This document shows positions 46,413-59,935 of a DNA stretch of 64,000 bases, in pieces. The stretch covers positions 66,885 through 130,884 of the forward strand of contig URPE01000002.1 in assembly GCA_900549625.1 (NCBI GenBank), read 5' to 3'. Made by a program: the position numbers and the translations under genes. Each line of letters opens with the position of its first letter. Position 1 is the stretch's first letter. The DNA comes from an uncultured Mycoplasmatota bacterium. Lineage in GTDB: Bacteria > Bacillota_I > Bacilli_A > RF39 > UBA660. The notes under the pieces are model-generated. The model did not search any database. It saw nothing but the letters and a program-made list of their open reading frames with translations, and was not told where the DNA came from.

Positions 46413-47955
46413 TTCCTAATTTTATTTCCTCCAATTTCTTATCCATGTCTATACGCATAAATATAGGTGTTGCCGAAAGTACACTAAAAGATAAGTCTTC
46501 TTCATAATTATTATTTAACTCTTGGTTTATTTGTCTTAAAATTTCTTGTGCTGTATCTGGTAAAAATGGACTTAATTCACTAGCGCATACTAAGACACTT
46601 GTAAGTAAATTATAAATTACTGTTTCTAATCTATCCATTTTTATCTCATCTTTAGCAAGAACCCAAGGTGTTGTGTCATCAACATATTTATTTGATTTTC
46701 TAAGTACATCAAATATTGCATCAATCGCATTACCAATTTCTAACTTTTCCATGCACTTATCTACGTTTAAAGGTAAAGCTTTTATTGCCTTAATAAAATC
46801 TTCATCTATCCCTTCATCAACATGCTTATTGTTAACAGTACCATCAAAATACTTATTAGCCATAGATATAGTTCTATTTACCAGATTTCCTAAAATATTT
46901 GCTAAATCACTATTGATTCTTTCAATGATAAGTTCATAACTAATTGTTCCATCATTTTGAAAAGGAATCTCATGCAACACATAATAACGGATTGCATCTA
47001 CCCCAAACAATTTAACTAAATCATCAGCATACATTATATTTCCTTTACTCTTACTCATTTTATCATTTCCCATTAAAAGCCATGGATGACCAAAAACCTG
47101 TTTTGGCAAAGGTAAATCAAGTGCCATTAAAATAATAGGCCAATAAATAGTATGAAAACGAATAATGTCCTTACCAATTAAATGTAAATCACAAGGCCAC
47201 CATTTTTTAAAGTTCTCATCCCCACCATCAACATCATAACCAATATTCGTAATATAATTTGTTAAAGCATCAATCCAAACATATATAACATGTTTATCAT
47301 TGAAAGGTACACGTATACCCCAGTCAAATGTTGTTCTTGATACACATAAATCCTGTAAACCTGGTTTCAAAAAGTTATTTAACATTTCATTTTTTCTAGC
47401 TTCTGGCTGAATAAATTTAGGATTACTTTCGATATAAGAAATCAATTTATCTTGATACTTACTCATTTTAAAGAAATAAGCTTCCTCACTTCTCTTAGTA
47501 ACCTCTCTGCCACAATCAGGACATTTGCCATCAATAAGTTGAGACTCCGTCCAAAAAGATTCACAAGGCGTACAATATAATCCTTCATACTTATCTAAAT
47601 AAATATCACCTTGATTATATAATTTTTCGAAAATTCTTCCTACTACCTCTTCATGATGCTTATCAGTTGTTCTAACAAATTTATCATATGTAGTATTCAT
47701 AATATCCCATATATTTTTTATTTCCCGGGAAATATTATCAACATATTCTTGTGGTGATATATTTGCATCTTTAGCCTTTTGTTCAATTTTTTCACCATGT
47801 TCATCAGTACCAGTTTGAAAATAAACATCAAACCCTCTTAACCTTTTATGTCTAGCAATCGCATCTGCCAAAACAATTTCATAAGTATTACCAATATGTG
47901 GTTTTGCTGAAGCATAAGCAATAGCCGTTGTTATATAATATTTTTCTTTCATCAT
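46402..47955 (-). CDS. metG: methionine--tRNA ligase (short form)
   Basis: HIGN(TYEI) and KMSKS motifs, zinc knuckle CPDC. Confidence 0.9.
   Translation of the reverse strand: MMKEKYYITTAIAYASAKPHIGNTYEIVLADAIARHKRLRGFDVYFQTGTDEHGEKIEQKAKDANISPQEYVDNISREIKNIWDIMNTTYDKFVRTTDKHHEEVVGRIFEKLYNQGDIYLDKYEGLYCTPCESFWTESQLIDGKCPDCGREVTKRSEEAYFFKMSKYQDKLISYIESNPKFIQPEARKNEMLNNFLKPGLQDLCVSRTTFDWGIRVPFNDKHVIYVWIDALTNYITNIGYDVDGGDENFKKWWPCDLHLIGKDIIRFHTIYWPIILMALDLPLPKQVFGHPWLLMGNDKMSKSKGNIMYADDLVKLFGVDAIRYYVLHEIPFQNDGTISYELIIERINSDLANILGNLVNRTISMANKYFDGTVNNKHVDEGIDEDFIKAIKALPLNVDKCMEKLEIGNAIDAIFDVLRKSNKYVDDTTPWVLAKDEIKMDRLETVIYNLLTSVLVCASELSPFLPDTAQEILRQINQELNNNYEEDLSFSVLSATPIFMRIDMDKKLEEIKLGTSN
47720..47733. 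promoter_or_regulatory. Noc-binding-site palindrome ATTTCCCGGGAAAT inside metG (encodes ISREI)
   Basis: exact NBS consensus, extended 16-bp palindrome. Confidence 0.6.
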
Positions 47956-48434
47956 TTATCATTCCTTTCTTTTAAAATAAATGGTTGCTTATCCCATAAA
48001 TATTTATTCAAATAATTTACTAAAATATTTTCACAAGGACTACTTAATTTTTTAGGTATTTTATCCCAAGCATAAAACTTATAATCAACTTGTTCTAAAG
48101 TATCACCTAAGTCAATTTGTCCTTTATAAGAACGAGCCAAAAAGCCAAAAGTAACAAAATGATCATACTCATTAATATCATCCGCTACACTAACAAGCAC
48201 CAAACTATCTTTATCAATATCCAAATTTGTCTCTTGTTTTACTTTTCTAACAGCCGCCTCTTTTAAAGTTTCACCATACTTAACCTTACCCGCAGGCAAT
48301 GTCCAAGTTCCCTCAAGATGCATATTACTTAAAGCCTTTTCTGATTCACTATTTCTAAGTAATAGCAAGACCTCGCCTAATTCATTTAAAATAATTACGC
48401 CTAATCCAACACCAGGCATATTTCTCTTTTCCAT
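47952..48434 (-). CDS. NUDIX hydrolase
   Basis: Nudix box GKVKYGETLKEAAVRKVKQETN. Confidence 0.75.
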   Translation of the reverse strand: MEKRNMPGVGLGVIILNELGEVLLLLRNSESEKALSNMHLEGTWTLPAGKVKYGETLKEAAVRKVKQETNLDIDKDSLVLVSVADDINEYDHFVTFGFLARSYKGQIDLGDTLEQVDYKFYAWDKIPKKLSSPCENILVNYLNKYLWDKQPFILKERNDK

Positions 48435-48452
48435 TTCCTACCCCTTCCAATT

Positions 48453-48466
48453 ATTTCCCGGGAAAT
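48453..48466. promoter_or_regulatory. Noc-binding-site palindrome upstream of T-box/NUDIX-metG
   Basis: exact NBS consensus. Confidence 0.6.
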
Positions 48467-48477
48467 AATCAAATAAA

Positions 48478-48665
48478 AAAAGCCATAAACTAAAGGACGA
48501 GATAACCCGTGGTACCACCTTAATTCATGACTATTCATGCACTTTCATCTTTTAACGCAAGAAAACGTTTCAATTCCAGACCCATATTCTATATTAACTA
48601 TTTACCTATTTGCACCAACCATAGGCTCTCTTAAAAACATCTAATATATACTCTTTCCTTCATCA
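48478..48665 (-). promoter_or_regulatory. T-box leader (probable Met specifier) upstream of NUDIX-metG operon
   Basis: minus-strand AGAGAG box, specifier-like AAUAUGG, T-box sequence AAGGTGGTACCACGG (48508..48522) and downstream T-run; terminator helix not cleanly resolved by eye. Confidence 0.5.
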
Positions 48666-48691
48666 CTGAATAAAACAATTCTATCATAAAT

Positions 48692-49213
48692 TTAAAGAAT
48701 GTCAATTTTATTTACTAAAAGTTTCTTTAAAAAAATAACGAATTTCTTTTCTAAATCACTTATTTTATTATCACTTTCTATTAAAATAACGCCCAAAGCA
48801 TCAGATGAAGACAAAATTGTATCAGCAAAATAGTATTTTGGCTCTTCACCACAAATAATCTCTTTATTATCACTATAATAACTTTCTCTACTCTCTAATA
48901 ACCTTTCTAATACTTTAGAAATTCTTTTTTCTACCAACTCACCATTGTAACTAGCTATTATCTTTTCCCTATCACATATTATAATATTATAGTTAATACA
49001 CTCATATGCATAATATACTAAAGTTTTGGCCAGTTCATCAAAATTTAGTAAAAGTGAGGCCTTCTTTAAACAAATATTATCATTATCAATCATTATTTCT
49101 AAATTTTCGCCATCTTTAATTCCTAAACTTTTTCTAATTTCTTTAGGAATAACAACTCTCCCAAGTTCATCAATTTTTCTTATCATGCCTATGTTTTTCA
49201 CAAAAAAATTCAC
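48692..49213 (-). CDS. spoVT: stage V sporulation protein T (AbrB-fold N-domain plus GAF-like)
   Basis: N-terminal GMIRKIDELGRVVIPKEIRKSLGIKDGENLEI SpoVT/AbrB signature; mfd-spoVT synteny. Confidence 0.75.
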   Translation of the reverse strand: MNFFVKNIGMIRKIDELGRVVIPKEIRKSLGIKDGENLEIMIDNDNICLKKASLLLNFDELAKTLVYYAYECINYNIIICDREKIIASYNGELVEKRISKVLERLLESRESYYSDNKEIICGEEPKYYFADTILSSSDALGVILIESDNKISDLEKKFVIFLKKLLVNKIDIL

Positions 49214-49250
49214 TCCAATCTAAAACTTAGTTTGGAGTGTTTTCATTATT

Positions 49251-59516: not shown

Positions 59517-59543
59517 TGTTTCACGTGAAACATCTTATCAACA
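59517..59543. promoter_or_regulatory. parS site (59517..59532) abutting DnaA box TTATCAACA (59535..59543)
   Basis: sequence match. Confidence 0.75.
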
Positions 59544-59726
59544 ATTACGAATTTAATATAATTTATTAAAAAAATTTAAAATTAACTTTAATTTAAAAGG
59601 GTTAACATAGAATATTAATAATAGAATCTTTGTATTTTGCATTGAAATTAGCAAATTAACATAACCATATAATTAATTTTAAGTTTATTTTTTGCTTTTT
59701 TATGCGATTTTAATTAATTTTGCATA

Positions 59727-59753
59727 TGTTTCACGTGAAACATCTTATCAACA
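59727..59753. promoter_or_regulatory. parS site (59727..59742) abutting DnaA box TTATCAACA (59745..59753)
   Basis: sequence match. Confidence 0.75.
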
Positions 59754-59855
59754 TTATAATAAAAACTAATGTTTTAAAATTATTACAAACAGTTTATTAA
59801 AATCAACAGTAGCAATATTAATGGGATATCAGCAATAAGTATTTATGGTAAAATT

Positions 59856-59872
59856 TTCGACACCATTCGACA
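59856..59872. promoter_or_regulatory. two tandem Spo0A-box matches (TTCGACA = TGTCGAA on minus strand) 10 bp apart
   Basis: TTCGACAccaTTCGACA; perfect 7-mer 0A boxes at 59856..59862 and 59866..59872. Confidence 0.45.
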
Positions 59873-59889
59873 AAGAAATATTTAATATA

Positions 59890-59917
59890 TGTTTCACGTG
59901 AAACATTGTTATTCACA
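59890..59917. promoter_or_regulatory. parS site (59890..59905) abutting DnaA box TTATTCACA (59909..59917)
   Basis: sequence match. Confidence 0.75.
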
Positions 59918-59921
59918 AATT

Positions 59922-59935
59922 ATTTCCCGGGAAAT
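59922..59935. promoter_or_regulatory. Noc-binding-site palindrome ATTTCCCGGGAAAT
   Basis: exact NBS consensus. Confidence 0.65.

Follow-up and report, generated by a model that had tools for sequence, protein, structure and literature searches.

Seven predicted Noc-binding sites clustered beside a parS/DnaA-box array near the replication origin of an uncultured Mycoplasmatota bacterium

The window analysed here, a 64-kb stretch of chromosome from an uncultured Mycoplasmatota bacterium (contig URPE01000002.1), carries close to the replication origin, oriC, seven copies of a single perfect palindrome that corresponds to the Noc-binding site (NBS) of Bacillus subtilis. We consider it probable that these palindromes are the loading sites of a Noc-type paralogue of ParB and that together they form an origin-proximal island. 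A gene predicted to encode such a protein is found on the other side of oriC in a near-identical strain.

Seven identical palindromes and their conservation

An exact search of the window for the 16-mer TATTTCCCGGGAAATA returned seven matches, all with 0 mismatches, starting at positions 47719, 48452, 53040, 53441, 56435, 58853 and 59921. These are the seven identical palindromes within 12 kb that an initial annotation of this DNA had reported; its coordinates (47720-59935) were those of the 14-bp cores, the cluster of 16-mers spanning 47719-59936. No further variant was found in the window at up to 3 mismatches, so the motif family is all-or-none, and none of 100 dinucleotide-preserving shuffles of the window contained the 16-mer. 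That annotation had also stressed the rarity of the hexamer CCCGGG in this DNA (about 27% G+C), which holds with 0.34 occurrences expected, except that eight copies rather than seven are present, the eighth, at 8450, being unrelated to the 16-mer family. The equivalence that it had proposed between the core and the B. subtilis Noc-binding sequence is borne out by the published NBS consensus, ATTTCCCGGGAAAT (PMC3020112), and by the oligonucleotides used in vitro. In those duplexes the NBS is GGA-TATTTCCCGGGAAATA-TCC and the ParB-binding site parS is GGA-TGTTTCACGTGAAACA-TCC (PMC8429893), and both 16-mers occur unaltered in the window. Four of the 16 positions distinguish the seven palindromes from parS, namely positions 1 and 6 of each half-site.

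Four copies are intergenic and three lie within genes (metG, a methyltransferase gene and ybaB), as had been stated initially. The intergenic copies, to which no strand applies, comprise NBS 1 (59921..59936), a perfect 16-bp palindrome at the gyrA-proximal edge of a parS array; NBS 2 (58853..58868), also perfect, in the last unit of that array near the signal recognition particle (SRP) RNA gene; NBS 5 (53040..53055), in the gap between the methyltransferase gene and pth, 6 bp from the stop codon of the former and 21 bp from the start codon of the latter; and NBS 6 (48452..48467), 18 bp upstream of the start of a NUDIX gene (48434). This last site falls between the terminator of a T-box leader (48490-48672, 122 bits), which precedes the NUDIX-metG operon, and the NUDIX ribosome-binding site. 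The in-gene copies are NBS 3 (56435..56450) in ybaB on the minus strand, read in frame 1 as TTA TTT CCC GGG AAA TAT (LFPGKY); NBS 4 (53441..53456) in the TrmN-like methyltransferase gene, read in frame 0 as TAT TTC CCG GGA AAT AAT (YFPGNN); and NBS 7 (47719..47734) in metG, read in frame 2 as AAT ATT TCC CGG GAA ATA (NISREI).

The three in-gene sites therefore occupy all three reading frames, and they force the use of rare codons: CCC and CCG account for 2% and 7% of proline codons, CGG for 2.4% of arginine, TCC for 1.5% of serine and TTC for 6% of phenylalanine codons. Related loci, with 55-73% protein identity, were collected by a metagenome scan with the neighbouring PSP1 protein. In six of them, 13 orthologous sites were conserved at 16/16 positions, although their 120-nt flanks were only 42-82% identical. 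The ybaB site is intact at the orthologous position in loci L051-L054, the methyltransferase site in L050-L055, the site in the T-box-to-NUDIX spacer at the same place in L052 and L054, and the metG site in L054. In the conspecific strain L049, the two most origin-distal sites, NBS 6 and NBS 7, and only these, carry 1 mismatch each. The use of three frames, the rare codons and the full conservation amid diverged flanks demonstrate that the sites are under purifying selection at the DNA level. The comparison of the in-gene copies with relatives, suggested in the initial annotation as a gauge against synonymous drift, thus found the palindromes preserved.

There is very little probability that the palindromes are unrelated to Noc and represent another operator, a target of SmaI/XmaI-type restriction-modification, a mobile repeat or chance. 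It is true that CCCGGG is a restriction site and that two copies lie just upstream of start codons. Nevertheless, all 16 bp are conserved and not just 6, which, with orthologous positions and diverged flanks, excludes chance and a 6-bp restriction target; the shuffles exclude chance as well. Dissimilar flanks and in-gene positions that are orthologous across species rule out a mobile repeat, and the only nearby methyltransferase is TrmN-like and not a DNA methylase with a partner nuclease. The restriction-modification and mobile-repeat explanations, named at the outset as possible refutations, consequently fail. Moreover, a cognate Noc-type protein is encoded in this lineage, as described below.

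An island beside a parS/DnaA-box array

The survey of this species covered a contiguous 90.8 kb around oriC. The true oriC lies about 5 kb past the right end of the window, with six DnaA boxes in the rpmH-dnaA interval and three in the dnaA-dnaN interval. The seven NBS occupy 12.2 kb of the 90.8 kb, at 8.8-21.0 kb from the dnaA start and with spacings of 0.4-4.6 kb, and neither the 57 kb left of the cluster nor the 21 kb right of it, where the noc-like gene is reached, contained any further NBS. If sites were placed uniformly, clustering this tight would have a probability of about 4e-5. On this distribution, the seven predicted sites form one discrete NBS island beside the centromere. Relatives have extra exact NBS at two more places within a few kb of oriC, one right after jag and the other at the boundary between mnmE and mnmG. 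For comparison, 41 Noc loci are distributed over 1.4 Mb in Staphylococcus aureus, with an enrichment of 8-10 kb per site (Pang 2017, PMC5540599). The local density here, 1 site per 1.75 kb, is about 20 times higher, in line with the unusually dense origin-proximal sites described initially, and at this density the spreading zones of neighbouring sites would fuse.

The parS array (58819..59944, no strand) consists of 7 tandem copies of TGTTTCACGTGAAACA, six exact and one with 1 mismatch. It sits about 9 kb from the true oriC, in the 1.28-kb intergenic region that separates gyrA from the small SRP RNA gene (58698..58778, minus strand), and the latter marks its origin-distal end. Each parS is followed, at a fixed offset and in one orientation, by a DnaA-box-like 9-mer, TTATCCACA, TTATCAACA or TTATTCACA, and the density of such sequences reaches 6.2/kb in the array compared to 0.64/kb across the window. 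Among strains that are 99-100% identical, the array comprises 7, 9 or 10 copies (counterparts at L001 12451-14099 and L049 4100-5725), and it is invariably the two terminal units that bear an NBS. In these two units the three kinds of site are joined in composites: parS at 59890-59905, TTATTCACA at 59909-59917 and NBS 1 make up the first (59890-59936), and parS at 58823-58838, TTATTCACA at 58842-58850 and NBS 2 the second (58823-58868). The NBS stands 3 bp from DnaA-box-like sequences. Such triple composites had been described as lying within 45 bp; they exist, with a measured span of 46-47 bp. Likewise, the two NBS had been said to bracket the array. Both are indeed at its ends, but on the left the outermost parS lies slightly beyond the NBS, which makes the bracket only approximate. 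In related species, units of parS and DnaA box are kept directly upstream of the SRP RNA gene (L052 200-360; L054 1-180), and in L054 they form a tandem parS array with a 41-bp period, partly degenerate, at the contig end.

A Noc-type ParB paralogue encoded across oriC

A search of the window by regular expressions and tblastn found no ParB, Noc or Soj. Contig CABSGR010000001.1 of the human-gut metagenome-assembled genome (MAG) GCA_902477375.1, like other assemblies, matches the window at 99-100% identity, and this contig extends past oriC. The gene order there is rpmH, rnpA, yidC, jag, a 664-amino acid (aa) gene, mnmE, mnmG, rsmG, an inserted SLFN_AlbA/HATPase_c_4 gene and then a gene with ParB_N and HTH_ParB domains. 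This noc-like gene (L048, 20154 onwards) lies about 12 kb beyond oriC, outside the window, and its product has 415 aa and matches PF02195 and PF17762. The noc gene classically follows rsmG/gidB. The check for a noc gene advised in the initial annotation hence yields a ParB paralogue with Noc-type residues, downstream of rsmG in a near-identical strain; its location beside soj-spo0J, which had been assumed, does not apply, since no soj-spo0J adjoins the noc-like gene, and none was found after it at the loci examined. It should be noted that two of the genes along this path are lineage-specific insertions. The 664-aa gene after jag (L048 10728-12722), near oriC, has no Pfam match and stands where relatives carry an NBS instead, and a poly-G run is present at L048 ~10657-10668; the SLFN_AlbA_2/HATPase_c_4 gene (L048 17676-19253) separates rsmG from the noc-like gene.

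The specificity of this protein family has been dissected previously. ParB carries R173 and G201 and Noc carries Q173, K179, K184 and R201 (numbered as in Caulobacter ParB). Within the NBS, A1 is recognised by Q173 and C6 by R201, and these two residues with a single lysine at 179 or 184 are enough for NBS binding (Jalal 2020, PMC7383237). In the noc-like protein of the near-identical strain, read over residues 1-153, the segment GVSQSTIANKLRLLNL provides Q173, K179 and N184, and the CTP-binding and clamp motifs are RFQPR, GERRYKA and VENIQRRNL. The orthologues of related genomes all (35/35) combine Q-K-(N/S/T) with ISERHAR, which gives R201. The same pattern with R201 is present in 110 of 120 database fragments, the remaining 10 having no recognisable motif. 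Among representatives at 50% identity, a motif could be recognised in 120 of 145, and all but 2 of these are of Noc type, the two exceptions having R or L, and not K, as residue 179. None of the surveyed ParB-family sequences was of the R173/G201 type. The specificity residues, Q173 read directly and R201 taken from relatives, thus fit the Noc type, and the CTP-binding and clamp motifs expected of a Noc-NBS system (FQPR, GERRxRA, ENLQR) are present at the sequence level.

Comparisons over longer regions point in the same direction. The best NCBIfam match of full-length relatives is TIGR04285 (nucleoid_noc), with 275-282 bits compared to 180 bits for the generic ParB domain model, and the best PDB matches are the Geobacillus Noc structures 7NG0 and 7NFU. 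When a profile built from the last 75 residues of the clade was compared with B. subtilis Noc, it aligned over its full length with the C-terminus and scored 24 bits, compared to 1.5 bits for Spo0J; of the B. subtilis Noc sequence used here, the first 73 residues were verified against 7OL9. A homologue search with the 153-residue fragment returned partial sequences only and no exact 415-aa protein, and a search with the neighbouring SLFN/AlbA gene led to a 98% representative on an 8-kb contig that ends short of noc.

Several observations weigh against the assignment of the palindromes to such a protein. Firstly, only 153 residues of the protein of the near-identical strain are readable, so that its R201, linker and C-terminal domain are deduced from relatives. 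Secondly, its position 184 is N, where K184 is almost invariable in Noc orthologues (Jalal 2020, PMC7383237); the subfamily as a whole has N, S or T here, with A, H, G or Q in a few members. Thirdly, the scores of full-length relatives miss the TIGR04285 cut-off of 315 bits. Fourthly, translation begins 18 residues ahead of RFQPR, just after a TAA, so that the N-terminal amphipathic helix (Noc aa 1-15) and helix alpha-2 are absent. All relatives and nearly all database members have an equally short N-terminus, FQPR beginning at residue 17-24, whereas canonical Noc begins with MKHSFSRFFGLGEK or MKHPFSRLFSFGEK about 24 residues earlier (N-termini verified in 7OL9 and 7NFU). The amphipathic helix has been described as 'extremely' conserved and as necessary for membrane binding and function (Adams 2015, PMC4331003), and it is the element controlled by CTP (Jalal 2021, PMC8429893); given its late start and upstream stop, the clade protein is the natural equivalent of an N-delta-26 construct. 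An attempt to recognise, with a motif profile, a displaced Noc helix (SRFFGLGEKE) in the linker sequence NKFFNFLEDE did not reach significance, B. subtilis ranking 14th and Geobacillus 46th of 1002 sequences, 1000 of them shuffled. Fifthly, the term island is founded on the 91 kb around oriC. Finally, no NBS adjoining the parS units was seen in the next related species (L052 and L054 regions), which makes the NBS-parS juxtaposition species-specific; by comparison, the ybaB, methyltransferase, T-box and metG sites are older than this juxtaposition.

The region between the DNA-binding and C-terminal domains is a further peculiarity of these proteins. It forms an acidic, polar linker of 100-350 residues, and in 33 of 35 proteins (L009 16866-18089 and 34 relatives) one or two conserved N[KR]FF motifs are found at linker residues ~250-420, amid acidic low-complexity sequence. 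Examples are PNKFFNFLEDE, NNKFFTP and MPFFF, and many of the N[KR]FF copies are followed by proline. Among the best 150 representatives at 50% identity retrieved with a Noc-like query, the matches begin at residue 1-14 of the protein, the lengths are 325-791 aa except for a few truncated fragments, and Q173 and R201, nearly always with K179, are present wherever the motif is recognisable. K184 and a long N-terminus are found in none of them. These metagenomic proteins seem to make up a large Noc subfamily that is apparently undescribed.

In view of these features, classical nucleoid occlusion, in which the seven sites would be the origin-nearest part of a genome-wide NBS set and membrane tethering would block the Z-ring, seems to us an unlikely account. 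It explains well why site and specificity-switching residues are identical to those of known systems, why the gene follows rsmG as noc does, and why the protein has a Noc-like C-terminal domain and the CTP-motif residues GERRYKA and VENIQRRNL; an origin-proximal enrichment of sites is also a property of known systems (PMC5540599). It fits poorly with the lack of the amphipathic helix here and in all relatives, an in-frame stop immediately preceding the start codon, with flanks of 57 kb and 21 kb devoid of NBS, and with a local density about 20-fold that of S. aureus. The nucleoid occlusion system foreseen in the initial annotation is therefore upheld as to the Noc-type ParB paralogue; nucleoid occlusion as its function is not supported, given the missing N-terminal helix and a score below the Noc cut-off.

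According to a more radical proposal, the Noc-like protein would be the sole ParB of the lineage, in charge of SMC loading and segregation, with the NBS cluster, possibly together with parS, as its centromere. Neither Soj/ParA nor a second ParB was found in the 91 kb around oriC or in the origin-proximal DNA of about 60 relatives, about 1 Mb in total, and no canonical ParB (R173/G201) for the parS array was detected in the origin-proximal DNA of the species and its relatives. In its position, adjoining parS, the cluster resembles a centromere, and the protein is devoid of a membrane helix. Nonetheless, perfect parS sequences are kept at 7-10 copies, which implies a parS-specific binder, and variants of the Q173/R201 type are NBS-specific, those with dual specificity having mostly T or S at position 201 (Jalal 2020, PMC7383237); B. 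subtilis Noc does not load on parS (Jalal 2021, PMC8429893). In addition, the search for ParB and ParA covered origin-proximal DNA, a minor part of the genome, and the example of S. aureus shows that parB need not adjoin noc and that ParA can be missing (PMC5540599). We therefore hold a sole-ParB role to be quite improbable and retain a Noc-type protein loading at the NBS as the best explanation.

Genomic setting, known systems and possible role

All genes of the region are on the minus strand and follow one another, from right to left, as gyrB, gyrA, the 1.28-kb array, the SRP RNA gene, tadA, dnaX, ybaB, recR, holB, PSP1/RicT, the TrmN-like methyltransferase gene, pth, mfd, a SpoVT/AbrB-like gene, the T-box leader, NUDIX and metG. 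The related contigs are labelled as uncultured Bacilli, Erysipelotrichaceae or 'Candidatus Coprovivens'. In the origin region, a ComK-domain gene is located between dnaN and recF (L001 6428-6907). Elsewhere in the window, positions 28058-44467 hold an EssC-like FtsK/SpoIIIE ATPase (1531 aa), two proteins of 991 and 2278 aa with no Pfam match and an ADP-ribosylglycohydrolase, a block possibly representing a type VII secretion or toxin island. At the left window end (window 1-9000 / L063 2600-9900), Abi_2, RhuM, HTH_XRE, Amidase_3 and trypsin/PDZ genes form a cluster that looks like a defence or prophage remnant.

Among known systems, the closest likeness is to Noc-NBS of B. subtilis (Wu 2009; PMC4331003; PMC7383237; PMC8429893), with which the present one shares the 16-bp site, Q173/K179/R201, a Noc-like C-terminus, a gene placed after rsmG and the CTP motifs. 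It departs from this system by the absence of the N-terminal helix and helix alpha-2, by N184, by a long linker with N[KR]FF, by the lack of an adjacent soj-spo0J, by its score below the TIGR04285 cut-off and by the packing of the sites in 12 kb beside parS, where classical NBS are dispersed across the origin-proximal chromosome and missing near the terminus. S. aureus Noc (PMC5540599) has the same NBS core and sites confined to origin-proximal DNA, in a genome with no ParA, but differs in having the helix and a far lower site density than the 1 per 1.75 kb seen here. This protein also restrains replication initiation, and small peaks at DnaA-box regions were observed by chromatin immunoprecipitation (PMC5540599); it is possible, by analogy, that these peaks parallel the NBS located 3 bp from DnaA-box-like sequences in our composites.

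The ParB/Spo0J-parS system belongs to the same superfamily, presumably uses the same CTP-clamp mechanism and has origin-proximal loading sites, and the NBS cluster abuts a parS array. The two are told apart by positions 1 and 6 of each half-site in the DNA and by Q173/R201 as against R173/G201 in the protein. Multiple origin-proximal sites that serve positioning or anchoring are also known from RacA-ram in B. subtilis sporulation and RicO-ricS in S. aureus (bioRxiv 10.64898/2026.03.06.710092). In those cases, however, the proteins and motifs are unrelated, the sites are distributed over 600-700 kb instead of 12 kb, and the contact with membrane or pole is known. A literature search for a helix-less Noc or for NBS clusters beside parS arrays found no such description. 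Motif and protein family are thus already known, and what is new, as far as the searchable literature shows, is a helix-less Noc-type subfamily, its motif-bearing disordered linker and an NBS island beside a parS/DnaA-box array.

From these data we infer binding, CTP-dependent spreading and a downstream function of the Noc-type protein as follows. By analogy with B. subtilis Noc, dimers would read the NBS through the helix-turn-helix, Q173 contacting A1 and R201 contacting C6. As known from the biochemistry of Noc and ParB, the NBS-bound dimers would take up CTP, close into clamps and slide onto the adjoining DNA. Seven loading sites would then yield one continuous Noc-coated domain of about 12-20 kb, which would adjoin and interdigitate with the parS array and overlap the zone of ParB spreading. 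Since the classical membrane helix is missing, the output must go through another surface, and the conserved N[KR]FF motifs of the acidic linker would be the likeliest to act. Candidate outputs, all of them speculative, are positioning or tethering of the origin, local shielding from division, and modulation of ParB, SMC or DnaA.

To our knowledge, Noc belongs to a small set of characterised CTP switches, and membrane tethering through the N-terminal helix is its sole established output. The lineage described here keeps the NBS and the residues that read it under strong selection, has lost the helix and has its sites beside the centromere, a combination that implies that a Noc-type clamp either reaches the membrane by another route or has another output. 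We tentatively propose, as a possibility that we rate well below even, that the Noc branch of this large, uncultured lineage of gut Bacilli (at least 145 protein clusters at 50% identity) has turned from a membrane-tethering inhibitor of division that acts on the whole chromosome into a dedicated organiser of the origin domain, which would act from the NBS island and the parS/DnaA-box array through N[KR]FF on ParB, SMC, DnaA or the divisome. In the extreme version of this proposal, the Noc-like protein may be the only ParB-family protein of the lineage. With predicted sites for Noc, ParB and DnaA within about 46 bp, cross-talk between segregation, division and replication could become directly testable.

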